64,000 nucleotides of DNA from a phage. Location: the NCBI GenBank assembly GCA_017822615.1, contig GCA_017822615.1_4530.1. One strand, 5' to 3'. Under the pieces are notes generated by a model, which saw only the letters and a list, made by a program, of their open reading frames with translations, was not told the DNA's origin and did no database searches. This document shows positions 1 through 57,486 of this stretch, in pieces (position 1 is the stretch's first letter; each line of letters begins with the position of its first letter). The position numbers and the translations under genes are program-made.

Positions 1-1
1 T

Positions 2-196
2 TATTTTAACCCTGTAGATGCTCGCGCTGTTGCTTATGCAGAGAATAAAGCAGAATGGCATTACGAAATTGTTAAGCTTCTTCGAAATCCGAACTATCGG
101 GAAGATCGCGGCTTGTTCTTAGCGGAACATGTTCGAACACATTATAATCTGGCAGATGCAAACGAATTGCGACGCCAGGTTATTGAAAGTTTGTAG
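2..196 (+). CDS. 3' fragment of a gene cut by the window edge; paralog of the next gene (glycosyltransferase-like C-terminus)
   Basis: Frame open from position 2 to TAG at 194-196; C-terminus ...VRTHYNLADANELRRQVIESL parallels ...VRTHYHIDVLNERRRLLFEEL of the 386..1147 product. Confidence 0.5.
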   Translation, partial: YFNPVDARAVAYAENKAEWHYEIVKLLRNPNYREDRGLFLAEHVRTHYNLADANELRRQVIESL

Positions 197-219
197 GTGA
201 AGTATGGGACAAATAATTC

Positions 220-248
220 TTGACAATCGTAACGGAATCAATTATAGT
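220..248 (+). promoter_or_regulatory. sigma70-like promoter TTGACA-N17-TATAGT
   Basis: TTGACA at 220-225, 17-nt spacer, TATAGT at 243-248; followed by a 7-bp leader hairpin at 271-289. Confidence 0.5.
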
Positions 249-385
249 GTCTGCGATTTCCATAGGGTAGTGCTGCCTTACTCAAGGCAGTTCTCTTCAC
301 AACCTAAACACAACGTTTTCGTTTTTAACGGAGTGCCAACAAAAGGTAAAGAGGGCTTTTAGCCCTTAAAAACCTGGGCTTTAAA

Positions 386-1147
386 ATGGTTATGGATTTG
401 GATGACTCTTTAGTTATTCCAAAAGGACACATGTTAGAAGGTATTTTTGAATCAGGTATTCGTGAACATTTAAAATGGTTTTTAGAGCACAGTGATCTTG
501 TTACAACTACGACACCTGCCTTGCAAGTTGAACTTTCACAATACAATGATAATGTGCACATAATCCCTAATGGACTTCCTTACGATGAAGGTCAATTTGT
601 GTTGACCCGTGATCGCTACTCCAAAACTCCATTAGTCTGGGCTGGAAGTGAAACACATAAACAAGATTTGGCTATCTTGCCCGATTTTGGTAAAGATCTT
701 ACAATATGTGGTTTTCGTAGGGATTCTGAAGTTTTAAGTAGTCGTGAATGGTCTTTAATCAGGGAAAATGTAGCACCAACTTGTGTTTATGAAGGTGTAA
801 GACCATATGCCAACTACATGGAATCTTACGATGGTCATCAAATCAGTCTTGCACCATTGATCGATAACGTGTTTAATAATGCAAAAAGCAATCTTAAAAT
901 TCTTGAGGCAGGTGCTAAGGGTTTACCTTTAATCTGCTCTCCTCGTGAGAATTATCATACACAAGAGTTTAAAGATTTGTTATTCTTTGCTGAAACACCT
1001 TCCGAGTGGAAAGATATTACGGAATACTTATTAAGTGCTCCCGATGTTTGCATGGAGAAAGGATTAGCATTAGCTAAGTATGTCAGGACTCATTATCACA
1101 TTGATGTGTTGAATGAGCGTCGTAGACTTTTATTTGAGGAGCTATAA
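386..1147 (+). CDS. putative glycosyltransferase-like protein (GT-B C-terminal domain)
   Basis: 253-aa ORF; motif KILEAGAKGLPLICSP resembles the GT1/GT4 donor-binding segment; C-terminus paralogous to the upstream fragment. Confidence 0.4.
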   Translation: MVMDLDDSLVIPKGHMLEGIFESGIREHLKWFLEHSDLVTTTTPALQVELSQYNDNVHIIPNGLPYDEGQFVLTRDRYSKTPLVWAGSETHKQDLAILPDFGKDLTICGFRRDSEVLSSREWSLIRENVAPTCVYEGVRPYANYMESYDGHQISLAPLIDNVFNNAKSNLKILEAGAKGLPLICSPRENYHTQEFKDLLFFAETPSEWKDITEYLLSAPDVCMEKGLALAKYVRTHYHIDVLNERRRLLFEEL

Positions 1148-1425
1148 TGATTAACACTTTTGATTTTGAATACACCACTCGTAACGGGAAAGCCTTGGTC
1201 GTGGAGGTGGATTACTATTATGAAGAACCTAATCCACTTTCTCGTGAAAGCGATTGGGATTACCACGGAGGGCTTTTAATTGACGGTATTCGTTTTTATG
1301 AAGGATCTACAGAAGTTTTTGAAAAAGATTTAAATGTAACTGTAGCAGAAATTGCTTTCCAATTTAGAAAGCACATGGAAGAACTAGAAGCAGAATATAT
1401 GATGGAGACTAACGAACCATTTTAA
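1147..1425 (+). CDS. hypothetical protein
   Basis: 92-aa ORF; ATG overlaps the upstream stop (TAATG), suggesting translational coupling. Confidence 0.55.
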   Translation: MINTFDFEYTTRNGKALVVEVDYYYEEPNPLSRESDWDYHGGLLIDGIRFYEGSTEVFEKDLNVTVAEIAFQFRKHMEELEAEYMMETNEPF

Positions 1426-1437
1426 CAGGAGAACAAA

Positions 1438-3216
1438 GTGTCGCACATTATAACTAAATATGGATTTGATGTTGATCTTAGCAAGGAAGGGCATACAGGT
1501 TGTCCGCGCTGCATGAAAAATGGCAAGGATCGCTCTCGTAATAACCTGATGGTTTATGGATTAGATTCTAATGGAGAGCATAAAGGTGCTAAGTGCTTTG
1601 CGTGTGAATACACTATTCCTAGCGTAGAATGGTTACGAGAAAATGGTGAAGTTTTAGAAGAAGAGGAGGAGATTGTGGGTTCGGAATTTAATAAACAGAT
1701 TCATCGTAAAATTGTTCAAGAAACATCAACCAACCCACGTGGTTATCGAGGCATTAAAGAAAAAGTTTCATCTTTCTATGGTGTTCGTTATGAATACCGT
1801 CAGGAAGGGGATCAGATGGTAGTAGAAAGTTGTTTATATCCAACTACTATCGGTAAAGAATTGGTTGGTTTTAAGCGTCGTATTCATCCTAAAGATTTCA
1901 GTAAACCTATTGGTCAAGTAGGTAAAGATGTAGATCTTTTTGGACAAATTCGTTTTGCAGACCGTTCTCATACTGTGGTAATTACAGGTGGTGAACACGA
2001 TGCTCTGGCAGCTTATCAAATGCTGTCTGAAAACTTGGACAACAAATATGAACTTCCAGCAGTAGTTAGTGGCACAACTGGTGAAACCAGTATGTATAAA
2101 CAAGTTCAGGCACAATACCCTTTCTTTGAAAAATTTAAGAAGATTATTGTTTGCATGGATAATGACAAAGCAGGTAATGAGGCATTTGAAAATATTGTTA
2201 AGGTGCTGCCTCGTAACAAAGTCTACCGTATGCAGATGGATCTTAAGGATGCCAATCAGTATCTGGAAGAAGGTCGTGCAAAAGATTTCGTAAAAGCTTT
2301 TTGGAGTGCTCGTCTATACACCCCAGCAGGTGTTTATGCTTCTAATGTCTTGTATGAAGCTGCATTAGAATGCTTGGAATCCAAGATGATTACCTTGCCT
2401 CCTTTTATGCGTGTTGCTGCAAATATGCTGGGTGGTGGTTTAGTAGAGGAAGAGATTACAGTCATCCTGGCAAAGACCAGTATCGGTAAAACTTTGATGG
2501 TGAACGAGATCACCAAACATATTATTGTTGCGCACCCAGAACATACCCTAGGTATTCTGTCCTTGGAAGCAACTTATAAGAAATATTCTCGTAACCTGTT
2601 GTCCTCGTTCCTGCATATTCCTCTACACAGGAAAACACCGGAAGAGAAATTTCAAATCTTGGAAGAGAATAAAGAAAAAATCCTAGATTTTTACGAAAGA
2701 GAAGATGGATCACCACGTTTTTATGTGTGTGATGATCGTGGAGCAGATGTGGAGTCTATCAAAGAAAAAGTTTTGGAGATGATCATCTATTTTGGAGTAA
2801 CAATTCTTGTTATCGACCCTTATTCTGATTTGCTTTCTGGTATGGATGTTCAAGCCCAGGAAGAGTTAGCAACATGGTTGAAGCGCATCATGAAAGAGTA
2901 TGCTATAACTATTATCGTCATCTCACACGTTAAGAAATCGGCTAATGGTGGCAATGAACACTTAACAGAGGACGATGCAATGGGTAGTAGTTTCTTGGCT
3001 AAAGGTGCTGGTATTACCTTGGCTTTGGAACGAGATAAAGCCGCTGAAGACCCTGTAGAACGCAATACGACTCATTGCTTTATCCTAAAAAACCGTGAGT
3101 TCTCGGAAACTGGTCCGGCAGGGCAGTTTTACTATGACATTAGAACTGCAACTCTGCATGACAAAGAGCAGTATTTCAACAATCCTGCTAATTTGCCTAC
3201 GGATAGCAACTACTAA
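1438..3216 (+). CDS. DNA primase/helicase (T7 gp4-like)
   Basis: GTG start after AGGAG; N-terminal Cys4 zinc ribbon (CPRC...CFAC); DnaB-like helicase Walker A AKTSIGKT and Walker B ILVIDPY; 592 aa. Confidence 0.85.
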   Translation: MSHIITKYGFDVDLSKEGHTGCPRCMKNGKDRSRNNLMVYGLDSNGEHKGAKCFACEYTIPSVEWLRENGEVLEEEEEIVGSEFNKQIHRKIVQETSTNPRGYRGIKEKVSSFYGVRYEYRQEGDQMVVESCLYPTTIGKELVGFKRRIHPKDFSKPIGQVGKDVDLFGQIRFADRSHTVVITGGEHDALAAYQMLSENLDNKYELPAVVSGTTGETSMYKQVQAQYPFFEKFKKIIVCMDNDKAGNEAFENIVKVLPRNKVYRMQMDLKDANQYLEEGRAKDFVKAFWSARLYTPAGVYASNVLYEAALECLESKMITLPPFMRVAANMLGGGLVEEEITVILAKTSIGKTLMVNEITKHIIVAHPEHTLGILSLEATYKKYSRNLLSSFLHIPLHRKTPEEKFQILEENKEKILDFYEREDGSPRFYVCDDRGADVESIKEKVLEMIIYFGVTILVIDPYSDLLSGMDVQAQEELATWLKRIMKEYAITIIVISHVKKSANGGNEHLTEDDAMGSSFLAKGAGITLALERDKAAEDPVERNTTHCFILKNREFSETGPAGQFYYDIRTATLHDKEQYFNNPANLPTDSNY

Positions 3217-3234
3217 GGGCTTCGGCCCTTTTAT
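3216..3234 (+). terminator. rho-independent terminator
   Basis: agggc-ttcg-gccct hairpin followed by TTTT directly after the primase-helicase stop. Confidence 0.6.
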
Positions 3235-3246
3235 TAAAAATACCTG

Positions 3247-3275
3247 TTGACAACTTTGCGGAAGGGACTTATACT
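3247..3275 (+). promoter_or_regulatory. sigma70-like promoter TTGACA-N17-TATACT
   Basis: Consensus -35 at 3247-3252, 17-nt spacer, TATACT at 3270-3275; upstream of the 3309 gene. Confidence 0.55.
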
Positions 3276-3308
3276 TGTCTCATCAACCAAACAAGAGGAG
3301 AAGTAAAA

Positions 3309-3740
3309 ATGCGTATGACAATCGATCTGAATGCAAAAGTTAAAGCTGCTGGTGCTCTGGGTGCTGGTGTTATTAAACACAAACAAGCGTTGGCATTTGC
3401 CATCCCACACATGATTGTTGAGGATCATCCTGAAGAGTTTGCTGTAAAAGTTGTTGAGAACAATGTCTCTGTTATTGAACATATCCCAACTGGACGTTCT
3501 TACCGTGTTGTTTCTTCTAAAGGTTTCCGTTTCGATGTAAGCCCTTCTTTCACAAAAGGTGCTGGTCGTAGTAAAGTGGGTATTCTTTCTTACAAATATT
3601 ATATCGATAAAGTTGCAGATGGTGTTGCATTCTGTCGTGTAAGTGAAGGTAAAGTAGATATCATCTTTAAAAATACCAAAAACATGGTTATTTCTGACGA
3701 TGGTAAAGTTGACCTCACTATTGAGTTCGCTAACAACTAA
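3309..3740 (+). CDS. hypothetical early protein
   Basis: 143-aa ORF with strong RBS (GAGGAG), sitting between a terminator and its own promoter. Confidence 0.6.
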   Translation: MRMTIDLNAKVKAAGALGAGVIKHKQALAFAIPHMIVEDHPEEFAVKVVENNVSVIEHIPTGRSYRVVSSKGFRFDVSPSFTKGAGRSKVGILSYKYYIDKVADGVAFCRVSEGKVDIIFKNTKNMVISDDGKVDLTIEFANN

Positions 3741-3749
3741 GGAGGACTA

Positions 3750-4544
3750 TTGAGCAAGTTGAACACACTTGATCAATATTACACTAACCCCGCTTATGCG
3801 GGGTTCTTATGTGATAAGATCAAAGAAATTTTTGGAGAGGAAGCTAACTACGTAGAACCATCTGCGGGAGAAGGAGCTTTCTCTTCTTGTTTTAAAAACA
3901 TAACTTCTTTTGATATTGACCCTAAGTTTGAAGATTGTATTGAGGCAGATTTTTTAGCTCAATCTGTTGAGTCTGTTGGTAGTGTAACTGCTTTTGTCGG
4001 TAATCCTCCGTTTGGAAAAAATGCTAGTCTTGCCATTAAGTTCTTTAACCATTGTGCTGAAATGTTGGATAACGAAGGTGGTATTTGTTTTATCTTGCCT
4101 CGCACATTTCAAAAAATCTTTTTTGCACACAAACTAAATCCCCACATGCATCTTCTTTACGAAGAAGAATGTCCAAAAGGATCTTTTATTCTTCATGGAG
4201 AACCTTGGGATGTTCCTTGTGTATTCCAGATATGGATTAAACGCAACGAGAAGCGTTCTCCCGTTGTTTTAGGAGAGAATCGACTATTCGTATTAGGTAA
4301 CAGTAAAGACTACGATATAGCCGTTAGGAGAGCGGGAGCAAGTGCAGGTAAAGTGTTATCAGAAGAAGATTCTTTATCTGAAGCATCTACCTATTTTTTA
4401 AAAGCCTTGACTTCTGATCTTAAAACGCGTATCATTGAGGCTTACCCGTTACTTAAAGCTGAAGCTAGTAAAACTGCGGGAGTAAGAAGTTTAAGTTTAA
4501 AAGAACTTCAGTGGGTTCTGGAGAACATTAGAAAGGAGGAATAG
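3750..4544 (+). CDS. DNA N6-adenine methyltransferase (gamma class), orphan
   Basis: TTG start after AAGGAGG; AdoMet motif VEPSAGEGAF followed by catalytic FVGNPPFG (NPPF); no restriction endonuclease partner seen. Confidence 0.7.
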   Translation: MSKLNTLDQYYTNPAYAGFLCDKIKEIFGEEANYVEPSAGEGAFSSCFKNITSFDIDPKFEDCIEADFLAQSVESVGSVTAFVGNPPFGKNASLAIKFFNHCAEMLDNEGGICFILPRTFQKIFFAHKLNPHMHLLYEEECPKGSFILHGEPWDVPCVFQIWIKRNEKRSPVVLGENRLFVLGNSKDYDIAVRRAGASAGKVLSEEDSLSEASTYFLKALTSDLKTRIIEAYPLLKAEASKTAGVRSLSLKELQWVLENIRKEE

Positions 4545-7141
4545 TGAGTAAGTTTACATGGGATATTGAAGCAAACGGATTGTTGAATAATGACACTATT
4601 GATTATTTAGCTAGTCCTTATCGTCTCAAAGACACATTTCAAATGCACTGTATTGTCTTAGAGAACCATGAAACAGGAGAAATAGTAGCTTTCCACGATG
4701 GCCCTAAATACATCTTTGATGGGCGTCCTTATGAAGAGTCAGATGGTAAATACACATATGTTCTTAAAGAGTATGTGGCGCAAGATTACACGCATTTTCA
4801 ACTAAAAGATTTCCCAGACTTTATTAATCATGAAGGTTATTTTAAAGACAAGCCTGAATATCTGGTTGAAATGGCTGTGGCTCACAACGGTATCAACTAC
4901 GACTGGTTGGCTACAAAACTGTTTTATGGATTAGATTACAGTGTTAAATATAATACGTGGGGCAAAAATAAGGTAAAACTTATTGACTCCTTGATTTTGA
5001 GTAAAGTGTTAAACCCAGATCGAAAGATTGAGGGCAAATCAGGACATAGCTTGGCAGCACTTTCTCGAAAAGCAGGTGGTGATGTAAAAATAGATTTCCG
5101 TAAAGAGATTCCAGAAGAAGATCGATTTAAGACTTTTGCTGCGGATATGCTTTATTACTGTATCTATGACAACAAAGCCAATACTAGCGTATATAACTAC
5201 CTTATGGAAGAATGGGGTGATTATGATAAATGGGAAGGTCCATTTGAACTTGAACAACGTGTAGCAGACATTATCACACGCCAAGAACACCGTGGGTTTG
5301 CTTTTAACATGAAGCAAGCAGAAGAGAACCTTGCTTTTTTGGATGCAGAAATGGAGCGTCTTCGTTTACTCGTTGAGCCTATTTTGCCACCTAAACCAGC
5401 AACAAAAGGCTATCTTAAGGCTTTTATTCCACCTAAGTTGCAAATTAAAAAGAACTTAGAGCCAACTAACCATATGATCAATTTTGCTAAGAAACATGAT
5501 GGTCATTTGGAAGAGAGGGATGGCGATTGGTGGTTAGTTATGTTGGGGAAAGAGTGGAAACTGCCAGTTGCAGCAGATGAACCTCTATGTGATCCTAACA
5601 TCCCTGCAACATTGAACGATACAACCCATATTAAAAACTGGCTTGTAGGATTAGGTTGGGTACCGTCTGAATATAAAGATAAAGACTTAACTCTTAAATC
5701 TGGCACCAAGATTAAAAAGAGCGAGGAAGAACTTCAGAAAGGTATTCGAGCTTACGTTGAGCAAACTCTATCTTCTAATTTTTGTCAGGATCGTTGTGAT
5801 CATCTGGAGTGCACACCGGAAACCTTGGAAAGGAAGATTCAAGAGCGTATAGCAAAAGGTAAAGGTCGCGGTCTTAAAGTATTGACTAACCCATGTTTTA
5901 CCAAAGGTCAGGAAAAAGAAATCTGTCCTAACCTGCAAGCTTTGGGTGAGAAATTTCCTTATGCTACTCAGATTGTAGAATACTTAACGTATAAGCATCG
6001 TAGGAACTCTATTTTAGGTGGCGGTGCTGATTGGGAAGAAGATGAAGAAGATCAAGAATACGATAAAGGTTTCTTAGCCGCAGTAAGGGCGGATGGGCGT
6101 ATTCCTACACCAGCCGCTACATGTGATGCTGCAACCTCTCGTATGAAGCATAGGTCTGTAGCCAATATCCCTCGTGTCACATCTTTGTTTGGATGGGAGA
6201 TGCGTAACTTGTTTGGTGTAGAAGTTCCTAAATACTTCCAGATCGGTTATGACTTCGACTCTTTGGAAGCAAAGATTGAGTCGCATTATTGTTGGCGCTA
6301 CGAACCGGAGCCTCATGAATACTGTAACGCTCTCTTGTTAGAGAAGCCTAACGATGTTCATACCATGATGGCAAAACGTATTACAGATACTATTGGGCGT
6401 AAGTTTGAACGTAGTCCGGCGAAATCTGTTAAATACGGGATCACTTATGGTGCACAAGCAGACAAGGTTGCTAAAACAATTGGTAGCGATAAATACACAG
6501 GGCAACTGGTGTTCGATGCTTTCTGGGAAGCTGCATTCCCACTGGCGCGTCTTAAAGAACGTTTAAACGATTTCTGGGTTAAGACTGGTAAACAGTATGT
6601 TTTGGGTATTGACGGTCGTAAGGTTCCTACTCGTTCTGCTCACGCGATTCTTAACTCTCTGTTCCAAAGTGGTGGGGTTATCTGTGCTAAACGTGCAATG
6701 GTTATTTATGACGACATGATCGAAGAAGAAGGGCTAAGTGTTGACTTCTTTAAAGATGACTGGAAGAATAAAGACTTCGTGCAACAAATGATTGCATATC
6801 ACGATGAAGCCCAGCTTGAAGTTTCTCGTAACCTTGTAGAATTCAAATGGTTTTCACCTGAATCATTAGGTTGGAAGAAAGTAGACGATCCTGAAGAACA
6901 AAAGAAAATTGATAAAGAATGCCTTGCTAAAGTTGAAGAATGGAAGCATAATAAGGAAAAAGAGACAGGGCAAATTTGGGCTAACATTCATGAATCTCCC
7001 AAAGGTGGATGGTTTACAGCCTATAGTCGGGCAGGTGAACTTGCTGCTTTAGCTGTTACTAAGGCTGGAGAATTTTACAATCTTAATGTTCAGCTTACTG
7101 CCGGATATGATGTGGGTAACTCCTGGGCGTCCTGTCACTAG
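4544..7141 (+). CDS. DNA polymerase, family A, with 3'-5' exonuclease domain
   Basis: GTG start; Exo I motif DIEANGL; Pol A motif A DFDSLEAKIESHY, motif B KSVKYGITYG, motif C AYHDEAQLE; 865 aa. Confidence 0.9.
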   Translation: MSKFTWDIEANGLLNNDTIDYLASPYRLKDTFQMHCIVLENHETGEIVAFHDGPKYIFDGRPYEESDGKYTYVLKEYVAQDYTHFQLKDFPDFINHEGYFKDKPEYLVEMAVAHNGINYDWLATKLFYGLDYSVKYNTWGKNKVKLIDSLILSKVLNPDRKIEGKSGHSLAALSRKAGGDVKIDFRKEIPEEDRFKTFAADMLYYCIYDNKANTSVYNYLMEEWGDYDKWEGPFELEQRVADIITRQEHRGFAFNMKQAEENLAFLDAEMERLRLLVEPILPPKPATKGYLKAFIPPKLQIKKNLEPTNHMINFAKKHDGHLEERDGDWWLVMLGKEWKLPVAADEPLCDPNIPATLNDTTHIKNWLVGLGWVPSEYKDKDLTLKSGTKIKKSEEELQKGIRAYVEQTLSSNFCQDRCDHLECTPETLERKIQERIAKGKGRGLKVLTNPCFTKGQEKEICPNLQALGEKFPYATQIVEYLTYKHRRNSILGGGADWEEDEEDQEYDKGFLAAVRADGRIPTPAATCDAATSRMKHRSVANIPRVTSLFGWEMRNLFGVEVPKYFQIGYDFDSLEAKIESHYCWRYEPEPHEYCNALLLEKPNDVHTMMAKRITDTIGRKFERSPAKSVKYGITYGAQADKVAKTIGSDKYTGQLVFDAFWEAAFPLARLKERLNDFWVKTGKQYVLGIDGRKVPTRSAHAILNSLFQSGGVICAKRAMVIYDDMIEEEGLSVDFFKDDWKNKDFVQQMIAYHDEAQLEVSRNLVEFKWFSPESLGWKKVDDPEEQKKIDKECLAKVEEWKHNKEKETGQIWANIHESPKGGWFTAYSRAGELAALAVTKAGEFYNLNVQLTAGYDVGNSWASCH

Positions 7142-7158: not shown

Positions 7159-7179
7159 AAGGGGCTTCTGCCCCTTTAT
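7159..7179 (+). terminator. rho-independent terminator
   Basis: ggggc-ttct-gcccc hairpin followed by TTTAT after the polymerase stop. Confidence 0.55.
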
Positions 7180-17973: not shown

Positions 17974-18519
17974 TTATTCTGTCGGTAATGTAGGCCAATC
18001 TATAGCGTAAGGATAGTCTTTTTGAAGCGGAACACGATTTAGTTTAACTACATAAACTTGAAGATTTTTAAGATAAGCTAATTCGTCTTCAGTAGCCATT
18101 TCTAAATCTTTAGCATACTGTAAAGGTGTTATAAGTGCTACCGCTGTTTCTTGTAAAGAGCGAATTTTTGCACTAGCTTGTGTCATCAACTCTTCACGGG
18201 AATACTCTTTATCCTTAAGAGTTAAGGTTTCTAAATCCAGAACCTTGTTCCTAATATCCTCAAAAGTATCTATATTAAAGTCTACTTGTGCTATAGAAAG
18301 ATCTTCAGGGCAAAGCAGTGTAGGATCAGTATTCCAAAACACAATACGATTTTGATCATCAAAAACGACTTTCATTTTATCGTTATTGAATTCTGTGCTA
18401 CGTAAATCATACCAATCGTAACCTTGATCGCAACGAAGAAAAAGAATGTTCTCTGCTTCTACCAATTCTTTTAGTTCAGGGTCTTCAGGAATATATTTTT
18501 TAAAGTTTGTAAATATCAT
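17974..18519 (-). CDS. putative tail fiber assembly protein
   Basis: 181 aa directly downstream of a tail fiber gene; position and size as in P2 G / Mu U. Confidence 0.45.
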   Translation of the reverse strand: MIFTNFKKYIPEDPELKELVEAENILFLRCDQGYDWYDLRSTEFNNDKMKVVFDDQNRIVFWNTDPTLLCPEDLSIAQVDFNIDTFEDIRNKVLDLETLTLKDKEYSREELMTQASAKIRSLQETAVALITPLQYAKDLEMATEDELAYLKNLQVYVVKLNRVPLQKDYPYAIDWPTLPTE

Positions 18520-19581
18520 TTAGCCTCCAATATCGTACCAGTTTCCGTTAACGTTGCGCTGGAGGCGTTTGAAGTAAACCCCACCGATGTTATCCGCAGA
18601 GCTACGTCCTGTTTCCTGTACGATAATACCAGAAAGAACATAACCAGAAGAACAGATATAAGTCCAAGAAACCTCGTTCCCTGGTGGATAATACACACCT
18701 TGGCTAGTATAACGAATATCTCTTACAAAGGTTCCGTTAGCATAGTTGTAGTTATTTGTAATCTGACTTTGATGATTACTTTCTACATTGTTTATACGAG
18801 AAGAGAGGTTGTTGTTAACATTATTCAAGTTGTTTTGAACAGTGTTAATATTCGTCTGCAATGTGTTCTGAAGGGAAGTCAAACGAGAGTTCAGATAATC
18901 TAAACGAACTAAAGCATTTCCGTTAGAAGTATCTTGTCCACTGTTTGATCTTGGATTATCTATTAGAACATAACCTGCGTCATATAAACGAATACCTGCC
19001 GATACACTACCTGTGCTAGGATTTCTACGATAGATGTAAAGCTGACCTCCGCTTTGATACTCGGCAGAAATCTCACCATTTGTTTGTCCTGCAAAGTTTT
19101 TGAAGAACAGTGTTGCAGGATCTGTTGTGGAAGTACCGTTAACATAAACATCGCCACCATAAATAGCACCACCCGCATCACGTTTTACCAGCACGTTTGG
19201 TGTTACTGTTGAACTAGTGGCATCTGTAATGTTTGCCGACAAGTGATTATGACTGTTATCTTGAACTTGGATAGATAAAGTAACTTCTTTGTTACCGTTC
19301 CAAGTAGCCTCACCAGTAGCATCACCTGCCATTGTAATCTTAGTTCCCACTAAAGGCAAGTAGGTATTAGGTAAAGTTGGAAGAAAGTCATCCACCAAAT
19401 AGCGAATCCATAAACCGATATTATTAAGAATCCAGTTCATTTCTTCGCAAGTCATGATTTGACCATAATCCATACCAACTGTGCGGATGGTTTCTTTAGG
19501 TCTAATTTTGTTTGTGTTTAAAGTTCCTGGGAGCGTTACAGTTTGTGTAGCCCAGTCAGGATAATATATTGGCTTCGCCAT
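18520..19581 (-). CDS. tail fiber protein
   Basis: 353 aa; N/T/S-rich; sits in the P2 H-like position after the baseplate J/I-like genes. Confidence 0.6.
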   Translation of the reverse strand: MAKPIYYPDWATQTVTLPGTLNTNKIRPKETIRTVGMDYGQIMTCEEMNWILNNIGLWIRYLVDDFLPTLPNTYLPLVGTKITMAGDATGEATWNGNKEVTLSIQVQDNSHNHLSANITDATSSTVTPNVLVKRDAGGAIYGGDVYVNGTSTTDPATLFFKNFAGQTNGEISAEYQSGGQLYIYRRNPSTGSVSAGIRLYDAGYVLIDNPRSNSGQDTSNGNALVRLDYLNSRLTSLQNTLQTNINTVQNNLNNVNNNLSSRINNVESNHQSQITNNYNYANGTFVRDIRYTSQGVYYPPGNEVSWTYICSSGYVLSGIIVQETGRSSADNIGGVYFKRLQRNVNGNWYDIGG

Positions 19582-21954: not shown

Positions 21955-22103
21955 TGCGTTCTCATTACTTTTTAAATCACGATATGCAGCTAATTCCCCA
22001 AGGTCTACAGAACCCGCTGAATGCACAAGTACAGCAGCACTAAGACTAATGGCAGTAGTACCTGGGGCAATACCGCCTTGGGAGAACATTTCGTTCATAA
22101 GTA
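21955..22103 (-). CDS. hypothetical small protein (49 aa), not in ORF track
   Basis: RBS AAGAGG before ATG at 22103; its TGA overlaps the ATG of the 21952 gene. Confidence 0.4.
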
Positions 22104-22148
22104 CCTCTTTGTTTTTCTAAGAAACCCCCTCCGAAGAGGGGTTTGTTA

Positions 22149-24131
22149 TTAAGATCCTGAAGACTTAACCCATGTAAAGGTGTCTCCACGATAAATAACT
22201 TCGTATCCGAGAGTAGTGTCGAAATACTTTTGCCATGCGTAAGGCTGGCTAGGTCTATTGGCTGTAGTACCGCCTTCGTTTAGCCCGTAACTGAAGCGTC
22301 CGGTGCCGTTTGCGCTAAAGAACTCACCTCGCACGGTATCGATACTCCAAGTATTTAATAGCTTCTTGCAAATCATCTTACCTGTGGCAGTGCTACGCAC
22401 TTCAGTAGTACGCGCCTCCAACATATCAGTAAAGATGAAATTCATCTGATTGCCTGATGTGTTGTAGCAGGTAAATTGCATTTCATCTGTACCATAACCA
22501 GCCTGAATAGTTACGGCAATAGGCCTGGTTGCATTGGTATTACGCACCTCATTACACCAGCGCGAGTTAGTAACTGTACCTGATGCAGTGAACTCCTGGT
22601 ATATCTTAGAGTTCGTGCGAATGCCTGCTGCTGCCGGGTTATGAATCTCAGGGTAAGTAAACTTACTACGGTCATACGTTATGTTGTTGAAAGTATAATT
22701 GCCGACATCTCCCGATATATTGTTTGTAATGGCAATAGGGTGAGTAAGCGTAGTACTACGGTTAATGATGTTTAGGTTATCAATTGTGATACCACCTGCA
22801 GTACCCCCTGCATAGTTATTGTAAATACCAATAGCTACACCATACGGGGAACTGGTATCACCTACCTGGTTACAGTTCAAACTTGTCATATTACGGATAT
22901 GGAACTTACAATCATCTCGCCACTTAACAGTTTGCAGTTCCTGATTCTTACTGTTACGCCCATAAACGGAATCAATAGTAATATTGCCGGACACGCCCCC
23001 GTCACCACGGATTTCTATACAACGTTGGCATCCAATAGATGATACGGACCCTACGGTAACGTTTATAGGTTGTGATACACCAGTAAGTTGGTGTACTGCA
23101 AACAGGAGTGCAGGCCCAGCGTTATTAACACCTCGTACAGAACCTATTACTAAATCAATGATAAATTCAGAAGATACGTCAGGCTCCACGTCAATAGTAG
23201 CCCACGGACCTGCCGAAGCTCCTTGAATACTAACTCCTACACTATCTTCGATATATAAACCACGGCATGAGATAACACTTATACCTTGTCTACGAGAACG
23301 GGTGTATACACCAGTACCGGTAATTGCACCTCCGTACTGTTGGTCGTCGTTAACGAACCAAAGGATACTATCGCCCCAACAATAACTGATGTTTGGTGAA
23401 TCAATCACAAGGTTGCTACTGTTGAAGTTGCGAATACCATAACCCCATTCACCTGTAGTCCCTGTATGTGTTTCAACATCACCAACAATAACAGGGTTAA
23501 TTATTTTTGAGTTATGAGCATAGTAAGCGTCTATGATGACATATCGCCCTGATTCTACTGCATCCATTTTTAAAGACGCACCAGCAGAAAATTCGATGTC
23601 TATATTTTGGCGGGTCATTCTCAGCCCCATAGGATATGTTTCACTCCTGACAGGGTCCAAAGTATCCACGAGAACAATTCTATGCTCTCCTGGCGGAATG
23701 GTTACTTTATTAGGGGTCAATTCATATGCGGTTTTCAGAAGAGGCATGATGTCGTCTCCGCTTTTTACAGCCCCCCAATTTCTTAAATCGTCGATATCAA
23801 ATCCATTAAGTAATCCAACGCACTGCCACGAGTCGTCAGGGGAGGAACCGGCACCTACAGTTATAGTGCCGTATTTGGGTGTGTAATAATAACCGTTTGT
23901 TGTGTTTTTTAGAGCTGATACACCCTCAGTTGCGCTTCCTCCTGATAAGAAAGATCCTTCAGACTTAACTAATTGGAGTGGTTTTAGTGTATTATTAGCC
24001 CAGCTTCCAACCGTGTCAGTAAGAAAGTTGGAAACTGTGCTTTTAACAGTCTTATCAGGTTGGTCTAAAACCAGGTAATCAGAACCATTAACTTTTGATG
24101 TTTCGGGTAAATTAGTAATTGTAGTTGACAT
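22149..24131 (-). CDS. tailspike protein, pectate-lyase-like beta-helix
   Basis: 660 aa; repetitive G/N/S/V-rich beta-strand pattern. Confidence 0.6.
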   Translation of the reverse strand: MSTTITNLPETSKVNGSDYLVLDQPDKTVKSTVSNFLTDTVGSWANNTLKPLQLVKSEGSFLSGGSATEGVSALKNTTNGYYYTPKYGTITVGAGSSPDDSWQCVGLLNGFDIDDLRNWGAVKSGDDIMPLLKTAYELTPNKVTIPPGEHRIVLVDTLDPVRSETYPMGLRMTRQNIDIEFSAGASLKMDAVESGRYVIIDAYYAHNSKIINPVIVGDVETHTGTTGEWGYGIRNFNSSNLVIDSPNISYCWGDSILWFVNDDQQYGGAITGTGVYTRSRRQGISVISCRGLYIEDSVGVSIQGASAGPWATIDVEPDVSSEFIIDLVIGSVRGVNNAGPALLFAVHQLTGVSQPINVTVGSVSSIGCQRCIEIRGDGGVSGNITIDSVYGRNSKNQELQTVKWRDDCKFHIRNMTSLNCNQVGDTSSPYGVAIGIYNNYAGGTAGGITIDNLNIINRSTTLTHPIAITNNISGDVGNYTFNNITYDRSKFTYPEIHNPAAAGIRTNSKIYQEFTASGTVTNSRWCNEVRNTNATRPIAVTIQAGYGTDEMQFTCYNTSGNQMNFIFTDMLEARTTEVRSTATGKMICKKLLNTWSIDTVRGEFFSANGTGRFSYGLNEGGTTANRPSQPYAWQKYFDTTLGYEVIYRGDTFTWVKSSGS

Positions 24132-54046: not shown

Positions 54047-54249
54047 TCCCTGTAGCTGGGTGGGTGGTATTGGCAACACTTAATGGGAATGTTACTGTGG
54101 AGACTAAAACCATCTTCAAAGCACCAGAAGATTGCTATAACTCCTTGGTAACTTGGCCTCGTGATGATGATGATAAGGCAGAGTATCAGTGTTTTTACAT
54201 TGAGGGTAATCCTGTAGAATTTGAGGTTAAAGTGAAGGAGGAAAAATGA
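54025..54249 (+). CDS. hypothetical protein
   Basis: 74-aa ORF. Confidence 0.45.
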   Translation: MESGGTMIPVAGWVVLATLNGNVTVETKTIFKAPEDCYNSLVTWPRDDDDKAEYQCFYIEGNPVEFEVKVKEEK

Positions 54250-54716
54250 GAATTAAAGTAACTAAAGCTTACGATGATAACCCGAAGTTTATCTCTTTGA
54301 ATAAGAGTTATGGTGTCGAAAACGGCGATGAGTTCGAGGTTATCGATCTTTTTGAGGACCACGGTTATATTGTCAAAGCCCCAATCACAGAGCAGGCTAT
54401 TATCATCTTACGCACAGAGGCTGTTGAGGTAGGTTCTGATGAGCCTCAATATGACAGCCCATACATGACAGAGTGGATCGTAGCTGTGGATGTTGGAGGT
54501 ATGGTTTCTGTACTGAAGGCTCCTAATCTCCATCCTAGTTTTACAGAGAACGGTAAGACAGCTTTGGATTATGGGTTGCCAGAAGATGTTGAGAATACAC
54601 CGCCAGGTATGTACCGTTGGATTTGCTCTTTCCATGAAGAGAAGGATTGGGAATCAGGGCTTGTTGATGATTGGCATTTTGAAGTGGAAAGTTCTTTTTT
54701 AATCATGCCAGCTTAA
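54246..54716 (+). CDS. hypothetical protein
   Basis: 156 aa; RBS AAGGAGG. Confidence 0.55.
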   Translation: MRIKVTKAYDDNPKFISLNKSYGVENGDEFEVIDLFEDHGYIVKAPITEQAIIILRTEAVEVGSDEPQYDSPYMTEWIVAVDVGGMVSVLKAPNLHPSFTENGKTALDYGLPEDVENTPPGMYRWICSFHEEKDWESGLVDDWHFEVESSFLIMPA

Positions 54717-54726
54717 AGGAGGTTAT

Positions 54727-55071
54727 ATGAAAGTTTGGATAGATGATATGCGGAACCCAGCCGACTATGGACAGGAGGATGCAATTTGGTTTAAAACGTC
54801 ACAAGAAGCTATGGCCTTTCTCAACGATCCTGCTAAACTGTATCGAAGAGTAACCGAGTGGTCTTTTGACAATGATTTAGGTATGGAGTCAGACCAAGAT
54901 GGGTATGATGTTTTCCTGTACCTGGAAGAACTTCTGGCGTTTGGTAAACCTTGCTTTGGTTCACCCACCATTTTCGTGCATACTTCTAATCCCGCCGCTG
55001 GGGATAAATTCATGCTTGCAAAAGAATCCATGCTGCGTTATGGTATTAAAATGATTCGTGTGCACTACTAA
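54727..55071 (+). CDS. hypothetical protein
   Basis: 114 aa; RBS AAGGAGG. Confidence 0.55.
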   Translation: MKVWIDDMRNPADYGQEDAIWFKTSQEAMAFLNDPAKLYRRVTEWSFDNDLGMESDQDGYDVFLYLEELLAFGKPCFGSPTIFVHTSNPAAGDKFMLAKESMLRYGIKMIRVHY

Positions 55072-55080
55072 GGAGAGAAC

Positions 55081-55224
55081 ATGCATCATTCGGTTTGGTC
55101 GGAACAAGAAGAGGACGAAGGTTACTTTATCTACCGAGAAGAAGAGGATTGGCCCGACACAAGTAATGATCTTTTACTTCCAGACGCTAGTTTTTTCGAG
55201 GATAACTTAAGAGAGGAGGATTAG
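55081..55224 (+). CDS. small highly acidic protein (47 aa), not in ORF track
   Basis: RBS AAGGAGAG; product MHHSVWSEQEEDEGYFIYREEEDWPDTSNDLLLPDASFFEDNLREED. Confidence 0.4.
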   Translation: MHHSVWSEQEEDEGYFIYREEEDWPDTSNDLLLPDASFFEDNLREED

Positions 55225-55230
55225 GAAACA

Positions 55231-55587
55231 ATGAGTGGTATTGAAAACAATATTTGTTACCAACCTCTTACCTGGATGGGTGAGGGTCATTATGCGCAAC
55301 GTGTTATCGTCTGTGCTGCAAATAAGTATATTTTGAATAATGGTGAAGAGTTAATTATTCCTTGTGTTCGACATGCAAATCCTGTACTATATGCACAGTT
55401 AAACGTGTTGAAAGAAGCAGGTGTAATCAACAAAACTTTGTGCACACCAGATAATCAAGGCTTTATCGATCAGTATTACAATTGGTGGAGTCGTGCGGAT
55501 GCTTACATCATCGCGGAAAATGCTGACCAGATCGACCATGAGCGTAATGGTCACGACCATGAATTATTTAGCGAGGGATTATACTAA
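55231..55587 (+). CDS. hypothetical protein
   Basis: 118 aa; RBS GAGGAGG. Confidence 0.55.
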   Translation: MSGIENNICYQPLTWMGEGHYAQRVIVCAANKYILNNGEELIIPCVRHANPVLYAQLNVLKEAGVINKTLCTPDNQGFIDQYYNWWSRADAYIIAENADQIDHERNGHDHELFSEGLY

Positions 55588-56138
55588 TGTTTATTACAAG
55601 TGATTTGCATTTTATGCACAAACGTATACGAGAGTTTGCTCCTGAATATCGACCGTGGGAAGATATGGACCACATGACAGAAGCACTGATCGAAGCATGG
55701 AATAAATGTGCTACTACTCCTGGTGTTAAGATGTGGCATTTGGGCGACTTCTGTTTCGGAACTGAAGAAGATACCCGTAAAATTGCTTCTCGTCTCCAAG
55801 GAGATATCACCTACTGTGTTGGGAACCATGACTACAGCAAACACCGAGAAGTGCTTGCAGAGTATGGTGAAGTGGTGTATTATGACGAAGTGAAATATCA
55901 GAAGCTGTTCTTCGTCTTAAGTCATTACCCTATGGCCTCCTGGAATAAACAAGGTCGTGGATCAATCATGCTACACGGGCATTCCCACGGATCTTTCCCT
56001 GATGAAGCTTATGGTAAAATGTTAGATGTGGGTTGGGATGCACATGGAAAAATCTTGCATTTTGATGAGATAATTTCTATGATGAGTAAACGAGATATCG
56101 TGACTGTAGACCATCACAAAATAATCAAAGGAGAGTAA
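55587..56138 (+). CDS. calcineurin-like metallophosphoesterase (putative RNA 3'-end healing phosphatase)
   Basis: Motifs SDLHFMH, HLGDFCFG, CVGNHD, HGHSH; immediately upstream of the RNA ligase and kinase genes. Confidence 0.7.
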   Translation: MFITSDLHFMHKRIREFAPEYRPWEDMDHMTEALIEAWNKCATTPGVKMWHLGDFCFGTEEDTRKIASRLQGDITYCVGNHDYSKHREVLAEYGEVVYYDEVKYQKLFFVLSHYPMASWNKQGRGSIMLHGHSHGSFPDEAYGKMLDVGWDAHGKILHFDEIISMMSKRDIVTVDHHKIIKGE

Positions 56139-56139
56139 T

Positions 56140-57072
56140 GTGGCTAAATTTAACTGCGACGATTTGGTTGAAAAAGGTTTAGTTCATAAGAAAACATATA
56201 AAGAAGGAGAGTATTCTGGTCTATCTGTTCTTAAGTATAAGAACAAAGTTTTCTGGGATAACTTATGGGGCATTGATTCTCGTCTTCTGGAATGTCGCGG
56301 AATCGTTGTTGACGCTGATGACAATGTTGTTATTTGGCCTTTCACTAAGATTTTTAATCATTTTGAGAATGGCACAGATCTACCAGCGGATGAACTTGTA
56401 GATGTGGTTCGTAAAGTAAATGGTTTTATGGCCTCTGTGGGTGTATATAAAGGTCAACTTATTGTATCGACAACAGGAAGCCTTGAATCAGATTTTGCAA
56501 GTATTGCAAAGAATCATATTGTTTCAGAGTGTGATGACATAGAACATTTCATCAAATGGACAGAGAGTGCAAAAGCAACTTTCCTTTTTGAAATCTGTGA
56601 TCCTTCTGATCCGCATATTGTCGAAGAAGAACCAGGTGCATACTTAATTGGTGCCAGAATTCAAAACCCTGATGGGACAAGTTTTATGTTACCTGAAGGT
56701 GCTCTTGATGGAATTGCTTCTGTCACCAAATTTAAGCGTCCTGAAGTTTATCCAATGGTTAAGTTTTCAGATGTTGTTGAAATGTCTAAACATTGTAAAC
56801 ACGAAGGGTTTGTAGTTCGTGAAACAAACTATCCGTTCAACTTACTTTTAAAAATTAAATCACCACACTATCTTACTAAGAAGTTTCTTATGCGCGGTGG
56901 AGATAAAAAGTGGGATCTGATTTGGGATAATCCGAAAAATGCCAAACAAATTGTTGACGAAGAATATTACGCTTTGTTAGAATGGATTCGAAATAATTTT
57001 ACGAAGACTCAATGGGCTGCTTTAAATCAGCAAGAGCGACGTGAAAAAATCGAAAACTTCTTTGGAGGATAA
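56140..57072 (+). CDS. ATP-dependent RNA ligase
   Basis: Nucleotidyltransferase motif I KVNG, motif IV EGFVV, motif V LLKIK; 310 aa; flanked by end-healing enzymes. Confidence 0.65.
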   Translation: MAKFNCDDLVEKGLVHKKTYKEGEYSGLSVLKYKNKVFWDNLWGIDSRLLECRGIVVDADDNVVIWPFTKIFNHFENGTDLPADELVDVVRKVNGFMASVGVYKGQLIVSTTGSLESDFASIAKNHIVSECDDIEHFIKWTESAKATFLFEICDPSDPHIVEEEPGAYLIGARIQNPDGTSFMLPEGALDGIASVTKFKRPEVYPMVKFSDVVEMSKHCKHEGFVVRETNYPFNLLLKIKSPHYLTKKFLMRGGDKKWDLIWDNPKNAKQIVDEEYYALLEWIRNNFTKTQWAALNQQERREKIENFFGG

Positions 57073-57477
57073 ATGAAACAACTTATCATTTTACGTGGCG
57101 TTTCAGGTGCTGGTAAATCTACGGTAGCAGAAATTATTTCTGAAGGTTATTGGCCTATCTGTGAGGCAGATCAATATCATTACACAGAGAGTGGTGTTTA
57201 CGATTGGAAGCCAGAAAATGTAGGTAAAGCACACGCATGGTGTCAGGGTATTGTTCGTGATGCTATGGCATCTAATCTTAACAAGATTATTGTTTCTAAT
57301 ACTTCAACCACAGAGAAAGAACTTAAACCTTATCTAGCTCTTGCTGAAGAGTTTGGTTATCAAGTTATCTCTTTAATTGTTGAAAATAGGCACGGTAATG
57401 ATTCAATTCACGAGGTTCCACAATATATCCGTGATCAGCAAGAGAAACGTCTTCGTGGTTCACTTAAACTTCAATAA
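57073..57477 (+). CDS. polynucleotide 5'-kinase (T4 Pnk kinase-domain-like)
   Basis: Walker A GVSGAGKST in IILRGVSGAGKSTVA, close to the T4 Pnk N-terminus; IIVSNT segment; 134 aa. Confidence 0.65.
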   Translation: MKQLIILRGVSGAGKSTVAEIISEGYWPICEADQYHYTESGVYDWKPENVGKAHAWCQGIVRDAMASNLNKIIVSNTSTTEKELKPYLALAEEFGYQVISLIVENRHGNDSIHEVPQYIRDQQEKRLRGSLKLQ

Positions 57478-57486
57478 GGAGAAATA

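Follow-up and report, generated by a model that had tools for sequence, protein, structure and literature searches.

The first 1,147 nucleotides of the window (the 64,000-nucleotide stretch of contig GCA_017822615.1_4530.1 that was analyzed) contain the final two members of a cluster of four glycosyltransferase (GT) genes that is conserved, as judged by synteny, among relatives of its source, a phAPEC8-like E. coli phage of about 150 kb that belongs to Phapecoctavirus. The two genes are old tandem paralogs predicted to encode GT-B enzymes, and the second is split by a one-nucleotide deletion. The explanation towards which we lean is that the cluster directs the synthesis of a short glycan and that paralog 2 has been inactivated in this phage.

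The glycosyltransferase cluster and its two GT-B genes

In phage nieznany, the near-identical relative whose genome was used for comparison, and in other relatives, two small GT-A-like genes are followed by the two GT-B genes. The cluster lies in the replication-gene block, directly upstream of the primase/helicase gene and on the same strand, with the methyltransferase and DNA polymerase genes in the same block. Phapecoctavirus and Justusliebigvirus both carry the GT-B pair, rV5-like phages lack it, and some Klebsiella phages have the GT-B gene as a single copy. In the first two genera, as in related metagenomic contigs, the pair is followed by the small ORF assigned to phrog_4240 (Table 1). 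The four GT genes are already annotated as "glycosyltransferase" in the RefSeq records of nieznany, ESCO5, ESCO13 and others, and as "putative disaccharide synthase" in the BASEL phages EmilieFrey and PaulScherrer. The annotated proteins, whose labels are putative, are 99% identical to the intact form of paralog 2, whereas the second gene in the window is frameshifted. A promoter and terminator scan of positions 1..4600 gave only background-level signals.

Table 1. Features at the start of the window, with the basis for each.
Feature	Position	Strand	Description	Basis
GT-B paralog 1, 3' end	1..196	+	64 codons and TAG, frame 2	Runs off window start
Shine-Dalgarno-like AGGTGA	195..200	+	Overlaps paralog 1 stop	3 nt before ATG 204
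GT-B paralog 2	204..1147	+	314 codons in relatives (nieznany gp200), -1 nt frameshift here	Continuous 314-aa ORF in nieznany
N-terminal fragment of paralog 2	204..362	+	52 aa, with nearly invariant H20/R21 (CDxHR)	ORF list; conserved columns of alignment A2
Frameshift site	357..360	+	Run of four T's (five in relatives) within inverted repeat AGGGC-TTTT-AGCCCT	Alignments
C-terminal ORF of paralog 2	386..1147	+	253 codons, residues 62-314 of intact protein	ORF list; PF13524 at residues 132-235
Small acidic ORF (phrog_4240)	1147..1425	+	92 aa	Start overlaps paralog 2 stop (TAATG)
Gamma-class N6-adenine DNA methyltransferase (predicted)	3750..4544	+		Motifs, AF2 fold, distribution

When translated, the paralog 1 segment matches the C-terminal end of the nieznany 315/328-aa ORF without a difference. 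The full length of paralog 1 in relatives is 315 aa (nieznany gp199), and the full-length relative matched phrog_7162 (E 7e-149). A preliminary description of this DNA had proposed that the truncated gene and the ORF at 386..1147 are tandem paralogs that end in near-identical blocks. The paralogy is confirmed by the full-length pair of nieznany, which share 42% identity across 303 residues (E 2e-78). The C-terminal blocks in the window are indeed homologous, but with 22 of 53 residues identical (42%, E 8e-11 by BLASTP) "near-identical" was an overstatement. The limits assigned to the second gene were wrong, as the ORF at 386..1147 represents the 3' 80% of a 314-codon gene starting at 204. Unlike ATG 204, ATG 386 has no ribosome-binding motif, as read from the sequence.

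A frameshift allele of paralog 2

Deletion of one nucleotide in the run of five T's splits paralog 2 into the ORFs 204..362 and 386..1147. Any product started at 386 would lack the first 61 residues, including H20/R21. The preliminary description had overlooked the frameshift. The only hairpin that the terminator scan gave at this site is on the minus strand, and we do not regard it as a terminator.

Judging from the available assemblies, the four-T allele is probably a real loss-of-function allele, because a second, non-identical metagenome genome carries it too. This genome is represented by ENA scaffold ERZ28620348 (125.6 kb) and by the Logan assembly of ERR2241901, whose sequences are identical to each other. 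Over 4.1 kb, 27 positions of this genome differ from the window, all of them outside paralog 2, and its three upstream GT genes are intact (187, 227, and 315 aa). It could be argued that the deletion is a sequencing or assembly artefact and that paralog 2 is really intact, since the T run is a homopolymer and lies within a small hairpin, and since the four-T allele occurs in 0 of 63 isolate genomes. (With an 81-nt query around the run, the matching stretch was 82 nt in the matches listed, which came from 63 related phage records, none giving a match at least 99% identical to the window across the site.) We consider an artefact quite improbable, however, as the allele was recovered by two different assemblers (ENA and Logan) in a genome 27 positions away from the window, and runs of five T's are short for homopolymer error of the Illumina type. 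In addition, the deletion is the sole indel relative to nieznany in the first 6.3 kb, and phAPEC8_ev052 has an independent frameshift in paralog 2 (A5 to A4) at a different site.

With two homopolymer frameshifts of independent origin in this gene, the T run could also be taken for a phase-variable or recoding switch, such that full-length paralog 2 is produced by reversion or by ribosomes slipping -1 at C-TTT-TAG; slippage once the TTT codon has been read would give the exact wild-type peptide G-F-L-A-L. We regard such a switch as very unlikely. The run is just 4-5 nt and an X-XXY-YYZ slippery heptamer is absent, which argues against programmed frameshifting, and re-pairing of tRNA-Phe on CUU would, from general knowledge, be poor. 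Moreover, the ev052 frameshift is elsewhere in the gene, and two alleles in about 65 genomes are in keeping with ordinary mutation. If the four-T allele is a real one, as we favor, it circulates in nature and paralog 2 would therefore be dispensable; the other three GT genes of the cluster (paralog 1 and the GT-A pair), which are still intact, may explain why.

Predicted GT-B fold and sequence motifs

The AF2 model of an intact ortholog that is 99% identical to paralog 2 (P0001; pLDDT 93.6, pTM 0.91) has two Rossmann-like domains, with the C-terminal helix packing back on the N-domain. It gave 274 matches in the PDB at E<=0.001, and the best 50 of the 274 were all GT-B enzymes, with BshA, PglA, GtfC, and MshA at the top (E about 1e-9). 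On the basis of this modeling both paralogs are predicted to have the GT-B fold and to be closest to GT4 enzymes, and the model does not place paralog 2 in a non-glycosyltransferase fold. The GT-B-like donor-binding segment that had been suggested for 386..1147 finds borderline support in a match to Pfam Glyco_trans_1_2 (PF13524) in the C-terminal half of paralog 2, with 25.9 bits for the 253-aa ORF and 25.2 bits for the full-length protein (cut-off 25); paralog 1 scored 19.2 bits, under the cut-off. A search of NCBIfam with the four GTs and the methyltransferase gave no match. Two other results with paralog 2 were discarded as spurious: the ankyrin-repeat proteins that were the only matches by phmmer against the PDB, and a designed TIM barrel found beside weak GT4 matches in a PDB profile search.

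Retaining GT-B enzymes of GT4 (BshA 3mbo, PglA 8dvz, MshA 3c4q, GtfC 4w6q, Gtf3, SdgB, TarM, and PimA) have the same two-Rossmann fold as the phage family (Foldseek E 1e-9 to 1e-7, TM 0.5-0.65), and TreT, PglA, and BshA gave weak profile matches in its C-terminal donor-binding region. The phage proteins nevertheless differ from the GT4 enzymes in their low identity to them (11-16%), their shorter N-terminal domain (about 135 residues), their near confinement to phages and prophages, and their own motifs, which are CDxHR, DLDD, WAG..H, and KSNLK(I/V)LE. The EX7E motif of retaining GT4 enzymes is not conserved. In alignment A2 its place is taken by K228-SNL-K232-IL-E235, in which the nearly invariant E235 corresponds to the second Glu, whereas the first is replaced (position 227 is A/C/S/G/H).

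A GT-A/GT-B module in other phages

Relatives of the GT-B family are encoded in at least 572 IMG/VR stretches and at 23 loci in cellular genomes, in a set that covers 185,579 species of bacteria and archaea with one genome per species. Of these 23, many of those in Bacteroidota have terminase or tail genes nearby and those in Pseudomonas have the GT-A partner, and the family thus appears, by its distribution, to be restricted to phages. In other phages the GT-B gene is nearly always next to a GT-A gene of the phrog_2456 family, which is immediately upstream of it in 35 of the 44 contigs carrying the GT-A partner; the pair is also present in a Serratia prophage and a P22-like contig. In small phages the module is located between the lysis genes and terminase, or before genes for an unknown 140-aa protein, HNH, TerS, and TerL, and the domain of the +1 neighbor is fused to a head-maturation protease at other loci. 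Its small-phage neighbors include genes for DNA-acting proteins (VRR-NUC, ParB-like, HNH, and terminase), and one module locus carries an Nmad5 gene. Apart from a single RmlB-like gene, no rml gene is near the module in other phages.

Fifteen of the 28 members of the GT-A partner family match phrog_842 (beta-glucosyl-HMC-alpha-glucosyltransferase) and 10 match Pfam TAGT (TET/JBP-associated glycosyltransferase, PF20691), all of the latter below the cut-off (best score 19.2 bits versus 27.5; best E 3e-4). Both sets of matches cover just some 40 residues in the vicinity of the DxD motif. A PDB sequence search with the GT-A partner gave no match. Both paralog 2 (pI 5.6) and the GT-A partner (pI 4.9) are acidic. 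A 148-aa neighbor of the GT at locus L006 was matched by PHROGs as a "kinase", but by eye it looks less like a P-loop kinase than like a DUF3310-type domain, and it was therefore not counted towards a thymidine-hypermodification pathway.

The neighboring adenine methyltransferase

The product of 3750..4544 has AdoMet motif I (EPSAGEG, residues 36-42) ahead of catalytic motif IV (NPPF, 85-88), as in the gamma class, where the target-recognition region is C-terminal, and both motifs are invariant in an alignment of 42 sequences. Its AF2 model (pLDDT 93.5) best matched M.BseCI, HsdM (StySJI), CamA, and M.TaqI in the PDB (E 5e-8 to 4e-7); matches in a PDB sequence search were insignificant, and the Pfam Eco57I score was 15.6 bits versus a cut-off of 25.3. 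It is a divergent gamma-class member, and no nuclease is annotated next to it. Its identification in the preliminary description as an orphan gamma-class N6-adenine methyltransferase therefore stands, on the motif order, the fold matches and the lack of an annotated nuclease neighbor.

The same description had linked the methyltransferase to the GTs, a link that their distributions do not bear out. The methyltransferase is present in Phapecoctavirus (at least 95% identity) and in rV5-like Vequintavirus (about 54%), with nothing between these values, and is missing in Justusliebigvirus EmilieFrey, between a 131-aa gene and the polymerase. Because the distributions across phage genera differ, the GTs and the methyltransferase do not make up a shared module, and the methyltransferase appears to be evolutionarily independent of the GT cluster.

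Further downstream, the window DNA polymerase (865 aa) might be thought truncated relative to that of nieznany (1189 aa). This was rejected, as nieznany has an in-frame insertion of ~975 nt, with no Pfam match, and the form in the window is uninterrupted.

Potential donors and acceptors

In the explanation we favor, the predicted enzymes would work one after another, taking nucleotide sugars as donors, to assemble a short glycan. The donor might be a host UDP-sugar or dTDP-L-rhamnose made by phage-encoded RmlABCD, a complete dTDP-rhamnose pathway having been noted previously (PMC7552041). Any choice of donor is a guess, because rmlBACD are annotated at 19.5-22.8 kb in nieznany, 66-72 kb from the cluster, and an rml gene accompanies the module only once in other phages. 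Our literature search covered the glycosyltransferases of Phapecoctavirus and Justusliebigvirus, rml genes in phages, and restriction digestion of DNA from phAPEC8-like phages, and found no experimental work on the cluster; a paper on RmlA (PMC12773781) does not concern phages.

Based on gene context and analogy, we tentatively suggest that the acceptor may be one or more phage virion proteins, an assignment we hold to be possible rather than probable. DNA is unlikely to be the acceptor and a lipid-linked or envelope glycan is a little less likely still, with other targets accounting for the remainder. The late-operon and head-module setting of the module in small phages would support the favored explanation. 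Viruses that glycosylate their virions with their own GTs and sugar-nucleotide pathways include the mycobacteriophages Che8, Corndog, and Myrna, the chloroviruses (A064R) and mimivirus (fibril glycans). Like the phage studied here, they have several viral GTs and a viral pathway to a rhamnose nucleotide, and the location of the module beside head and packaging genes in small phages is a further similarity. They differ in that the cluster here is among replication genes, outside the structural block, which counts against a preference for virion proteins, and in that glycosylation of phAPEC8- and phi92-like virions is a proposal.

The preliminary description had taken the GTs to modify DNA as protection against restriction. 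As with the DNA glucosyltransferases of the T-even phages, of which the alpha-GT and the beta-GT are also GT-B enzymes, the cluster is among replication genes, beside those for the primase/helicase, methyltransferase, and DNA polymerase. Recurrent matches below threshold between the GT-A family and either TAGT or the beta-alpha-glucosyltransferase family of T2/T6, and the DNA-acting neighbors of the module in other phages, including Nmad5 at one locus, are also consistent with glycosylation of phage DNA, possibly with rhamnose and either alone or together with methylation, to counter restriction or other DNA-targeting defenses. However, unlike the T-even phages, these phages appear to have no pathway to a hydroxymethylated base. 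No tblastn match to the T6 dCMP hydroxymethylase (gp42), dCTPase (gp56), alpha-GT, or beta-alpha-GT was obtained at E<0.9 in the whole nieznany genome (L001-L004), the window and more than 100 other loci, a search that very remote homologs could escape, and no hmC-pathway gene came to light. Among potentially related genes, the nieznany annotation has just those for a MazG-like pyrophosphohydrolase and ThyX, its sole thymidylate-synthase-type enzyme, and it has none for a dioxygenase, of the TET/JBP or any other type. Profile similarity by hhalign was insignificant (alignment A2 against the T6 alpha-GT, probability 2.4%; alignment A6 against T6 ggt, 0.15%), and T4-type DNA glucosyltransferases were not in the best 50 fold matches in either library. 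The acidity of paralog 2 and the GT-A partner and the separate inheritance of the methyltransferase also argue against DNA as the acceptor.

Rhamnosylation of hydroxymethylated nucleotides was proposed by Olsen et al. (PMC7552041), and the idea of DNA glycosylation has since been questioned by restriction-sensitivity data (PMC8594841). The latter study describes Vequintavirinae and related phages, among them phi92-like ones that share the four-GT cluster and the rml genes, as "exceptionally susceptible" to RM systems, a result that applies to a sister genus rather than to a Phapecoctavirus; our literature search for restriction sensitivity found none for a Phapecoctavirus. A Druantia preprint counts against a restriction shield too. 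The cluster appears to give no general protection against restriction, and we consider its action on DNA improbable.

The target of the cluster could conceivably also be an envelope glycan (ECA, O-unit, or LPS core), linked to undecaprenyl phosphate or otherwise, in which case it would alter or deplete the surface receptor of infected cells, leading to superinfection exclusion or less trapping of progeny on debris. Lipid-linked or membrane acceptors are used by some of the enzymes among the best fold matches (PglA, PimA), some records label the gene RfaG-like, and dTDP-rhamnose is generally known as an O-antigen precursor. ECA and the LPS core serve as receptors for these phages (PMC8594841). 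Against this, no flippase, polymerase or initiating phosphoglycosyltransferase accompanied the module in the contexts examined, and no predicted membrane protein adjoining the cluster was noticed. The module of temperate and small phages is in or beside the late/packaging operon, which would be too late for surface remodeling, and bacterial polysaccharide loci contain almost no members of the family, the annotated ones among its 23 cellular loci being phage-like. An envelope acceptor therefore seems to us an even weaker candidate than DNA.

Implications for the phage family

The window itself is of little consequence, since its genes were already annotated and the idea of DNA modification had already been raised and questioned, although it is useful to recognize that the "gene" at 386..1147 is part of a gene broken by a frameshift and that the methyltransferase is unrelated to the cluster. 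Of wider significance is the conserved, apparently phage-confined GT-A/GT-B module in at least 572 viral contigs. A more specific proposal, which we put forward as doubtful, is that the pair is a widespread two-enzyme module that adds an undescribed glycan to virion proteins of Gram-negative phages or to DNA, in the latter case by a route independent of hydroxymethyl-pyrimidines, and that in Stephanstirmvirinae this glycan may contain rhamnose from phage-made dTDP-rhamnose. If true, either acceptor would be new for these phages, as neither has been described for them so far. Cocktails for therapy and biocontrol make use of Phapecoctavirus and phi92-like phages, and a glycan on their virions or DNA would matter for immunogenicity and host range.

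Organization of the glycosyltransferase cluster

Over its first 5 kb the window has 99.1–99.6% identity to numerous Phapecoctavirus phages of Escherichia (among them AV125, phAPEC8_ev052, ESCO5, and nieznany), ~150 kb myoviruses of the subfamily Stephanstirmvirinae, and phage nieznany (NC_052659.1) was chosen as the annotated reference (position in its locus L001 = window x+8000). In nieznany, the two GT-B paralogs are the final two of four consecutive glycosyltransferase genes, and the second of them is disrupted in the window. No curated family matched the first product of the cluster, gp197. A small acidic ORF, its start overlapping the stop of paralog 2, comes next and is followed by genes for a primase/helicase, a 143-aa protein, a methyltransferase, and the DNA polymerase, and the whole series from the cluster through the polymerase lies on a single strand with very little space between genes. 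In Justusliebigvirus, the sister genus of phi92-like phages to which BASEL phage EmilieFrey belongs, the same four-gene cluster is syntenic, its paralog 2 having 76% protein identity. RmlB, RmlA, RmlC, and RmlD are also encoded in nieznany, 66–72 kb from the cluster; rml genes in these phages have been noted earlier (PMC7552041).

The ORF entering at the window start and the 386..1147 ORF were initially described as having near-identical C-terminal blocks. The paralogy stands but the near-identity does not, as the last 53 residues of the former have 42% identity (E 8e-11) to the end of the latter. The complete nieznany genes (315 and 314 aa) also have 42% identity across 303 residues (E 2e-78), which marks them as genuine tandem paralogs of long standing. 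Three relatives in public data (P0013, P0014, and P0020) are hybrids that resemble paralog 1 in their N-terminal part and paralog 2 in their C-terminal part, and in a Justusliebigvirus alia record (OZ035770.1) only one copy is present, with 60% identity. Such forms point to unequal recombination within the tandem pair.

Several other features were observed in this region and in comparison with nieznany (see table). A near-consensus sigma-70-like site lies in the 92-nt gap 3' of the primase/helicase gene, upstream of the genes for the 143-aa protein and the methyltransferase, although such sites occur in the region at chance level. The polymerase gene of nieznany has an in-frame insertion that could be an intein-like element and has an HNH endonuclease gene just 3' of it; the window has the uninterrupted polymerase form (865 aa) and no such HNH gene. 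A block found in the window and missing from nieznany resembles the RNA/tRNA repair cassettes with which phages counter anticodon nucleases, and two stretches of the tail-fiber region are probably variable receptor-binding modules.

Features of the window and of related loci (window coordinates unless a locus is named)
Feature	Position	Strand	Remark
Paralog 1, end	196		stop of ORF entering at window start
Paralog 2	204..1147		AGGTGA precedes ATG 204
T run	357-360		TTTT in window vs TTTTT in nieznany and phAPEC8_ev052
Stop codon TAG	360-362		ends frame from 204 after 52 codons
Remainder of paralog 2	386..1147		253 codons; begins at internal Met without ribosome-binding motif
Paralog 2, phAPEC8_ev052	L007 3501..4444		A5 to A4 deletion, equivalent to window ~883-887
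Sigma-70-like site	3247..3275	+	TTGACA-17-TATACT
Methyltransferase	3750..4544		
nieznany gp197			187 aa, phrog_14179; DTD (DxD-type) motif by eye, looks GT-A-like
nieznany gp198			227 aa, phrog_2456; GT-A with DDD motif
nieznany gp199, gp200			both phrog_7162
TerC-like membrane protein, "tellurite resistance" (TerD-like), phosphatase, and hydrolase genes	nieznany 79874..84173 (L002/L001)		few kb upstream of cluster
nieznany polymerase insertion	L001 14439..15415; window 6438..6442		~975 nt, without Pfam match
nieznany HNH endonuclease	L001 16136..16719; window 7162..7178		missing from window
Putative repair block	54246..57813	+	missing from nieznany
Cyclic-phosphate-processing receiver domain protein (PF20274)	within 54246..57813	+	block absent from nieznany
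Metallophosphoesterase	within 54246..57813	+	block absent from nieznany
T4 Rnl1-type RNA ligase (PF09511)	within 54246..57813	+	block absent from nieznany
P-loop kinase (AAA_33)	within 54246..57813	+	block absent from nieznany
Tail-fiber stretches	22072..24013; 17976..18794		no megablast match to nieznany
Nmad5 gene, P22-like contig	L006 16754..17359	-	associated with nucleotide modification
phrog_4049 protein, P22-like contig	L006 10927..11385	+	152 aa

A frameshift allele of paralog 2

The second paralog had been taken for a gene beginning at 386; it is instead the remainder of a frameshifted gene, whose equivalent in nieznany is a single 314-codon ORF. Across its first 6.3 kb the window has no indel relative to nieznany other than the lost T. 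None of the 63 phage records matched by an 81-nt query spanning the site reached at least 99% identity across it, the matched stretch being 82 nt in all matches listed, and no isolate genome among these records had the four-T allele. An ENA metagenome scaffold (ERZ28620348, 125.6 kb) and the Logan assembly of ERR2241901 encode the exact 253-aa product, and both have four Ts at the site; these two are identical to one another, and over 4.1 kb they show 27 differences from the window, all outside paralog 2. A contig of SRR27108373 has 100% identity to window 384–1627 and starts 24 nt past the T run. As read from these assemblies, natural populations most likely do carry the frameshifted allele. 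The same gene in phAPEC8_ev052 has a separate 1-nt deletion, in the codons of an invariant KSNLK motif, and is annotated as two CDSs. Because of this allele, the phAPEC8_ev052 frameshift, the chimeric proteins, and the single-copy Justusliebigvirus record together, we would say that paralog 2 is dispensable, under some conditions at least.

Predicted folds of the glycosyltransferases and methyltransferase

The glycosyltransferase assignment of the preliminary description holds, as structure prediction, examined for a non-glycosyltransferase fold, gave a GT-B fold of the GT4 type. The AlphaFold model of an intact protein 99% identical to paralog 2 (29-sequence alignment; pLDDT 93.6, pTM 0.91) had its best PDB matches to GT4-type GT-B enzymes (BshA, PglA, GtfC, MshA, Gtf3, SdgB, TarM, and PimA; E 1e-9 to 1e-7, TM 0.5–0.65), and T4-type DNA glucosyltransferases were not among the top 50 matches in either the PDB or the viral library. 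Pfam Glyco_trans_1_2 scored just over threshold in the C-terminal half of the 386..1147 ORF. Unlike the classical EX7E motif of GT4, the phage family is missing the first Glu, and has conserved motifs of its own (H20/R21, D65/D67/D68, W-A-G..H, A-P-L, and K228..K232..E235).

The methyltransferase has motif I (EPSAGEG) and, 40 residues on, motif IV (NPPF), both invariant in a 42-sequence alignment, and its model (pLDDT 93.5) best matched M.BseCI, type I HsdM, CamA, and M.TaqI. This motif order and these folds bear out the proposed gamma, N6-adenine class, and the product is predicted to be a divergent member, since its scores to curated families fall under threshold. There was no recognizable nuclease beside the gene, its neighbors being those for the 143-aa protein and the polymerase. 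The suggested link between methyltransferase and glycosyltransferases found no support, as the two differ in distribution across genera: the methyltransferase occurs in Phapecoctavirus and rV5-like Vequintavirus and is missing at the syntenic site of Justusliebigvirus, and the glycosyltransferase pair is missing from rV5-like phages. Judged by this distribution, they are not one module.

A GT-A/GT-B pair restricted to phages

A family-motif scan of IMG/VR identified at least 572 stretches encoding GT-B relatives, and a scan of bacteria and archaea (one genome per species, 185,579 species) only 23 loci. Among the latter, the GT-A partner adjoins GT-B in the Pseudomonas loci and many Bacteroidota loci have terminase or tail genes close by; the remaining loci had no match to the query proteins. 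When ORFs around GT-B were clustered over 82 loci, a GT-A family matching Pfam Glycos_transf_2 and phrog_2456 was present in 44, directly upstream of GT-B in 35 of those, with a hexapeptide-repeat acyltransferase frequently two genes upstream. A 140-aa protein, whose domain is fused to a head-maturation protease in other loci, is directly downstream in 36; an HNH gene and then those of the small and the large terminase come next. A Serratia prophage has the phrog_14179, phrog_2456, and GT-B set between lysis genes and terminase, and a P22-like metagenomic contig (L006) has the three-gene set between terminase and portal. In this contig a phrog_4049 protein, which by eye resembles a papain-like cysteine peptidase, separates GT-B from its partner, and an Nmad5 gene lies 6 kb downstream. 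Near the module in other phages, no rml genes were found except at locus L015, whose cluster includes one RmlB-like gene. From these neighbor data, the core of the module is therefore a phage-restricted GT-A/GT-B pair, which starts the late or packaging block in small phages.

Candidate acceptors

All four enzymes would use nucleotide sugars for the stepwise build-up of a short glycan, the donors possibly being dTDP-L-rhamnose of the phage pathway or host UDP-sugars. DNA, proposed earlier as an acceptor glycosylated against restriction, seems unlikely, and the anti-restriction role found no support. The cluster does sit within the replication block, the neighbors of the module in small phages include DNA-acting genes (with Nmad5 in one locus), and in the GT-A partner family, 15 of 28 members match phrog_842 and 10 match Pfam TAGT, all sub-threshold and over ~40 residues at the DxD motif. 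However, tblastn with the T6 dCMP hydroxymethylase, dCTPase, alpha-GT, and beta-glucosyl-HMC-alpha-GT gave no match at E<0.9 in the complete nieznany genome, the window, or any fetched locus, ThyX is the sole thymidylate-synthase-type gene annotated in nieznany, and profile comparison of the cluster transferases with those of T6 was insignificant. Paralog 2 (pI 5.6) and the GT-A partner (pI 4.9) are acidic, which we also count against DNA. Moreover, Maffei et al. (PMC8594841) describe Vequintavirinae and their relatives, among them the phi92-like phages with this cluster, as "exceptionally susceptible" to RM systems "despite ... a putative dTDP glycosylation machinery", and a 2026 preprint places Stephanstirmvirinae with families targeted by RM systems. 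Were DNA modified all the same, this would have to be at low density or by a chemistry that common restriction enzymes tolerate.

In temperate and small phages the location of the module, in the late operon or a head module, speaks against a part in lysogenic conversion or in remodeling the surface early on, and we consider an envelope or lipid-linked glycan as the acceptor to be improbable. The same location is in keeping with a product destined for the virion, either inside it or on it. Certain other viruses have both glycosyltransferases and sugar-nucleotide pathways, an analogy for glycosylation of virion proteins. One or more virion proteins may thus be the acceptor, the reading that we tentatively favor, with other targets taking up the rest of the probability. 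RefSeq already lists these genes as glycosyltransferases; what is added here is confined to the frameshifted allele and to the broad distribution of a GT-A/GT-B pair restricted to phages.
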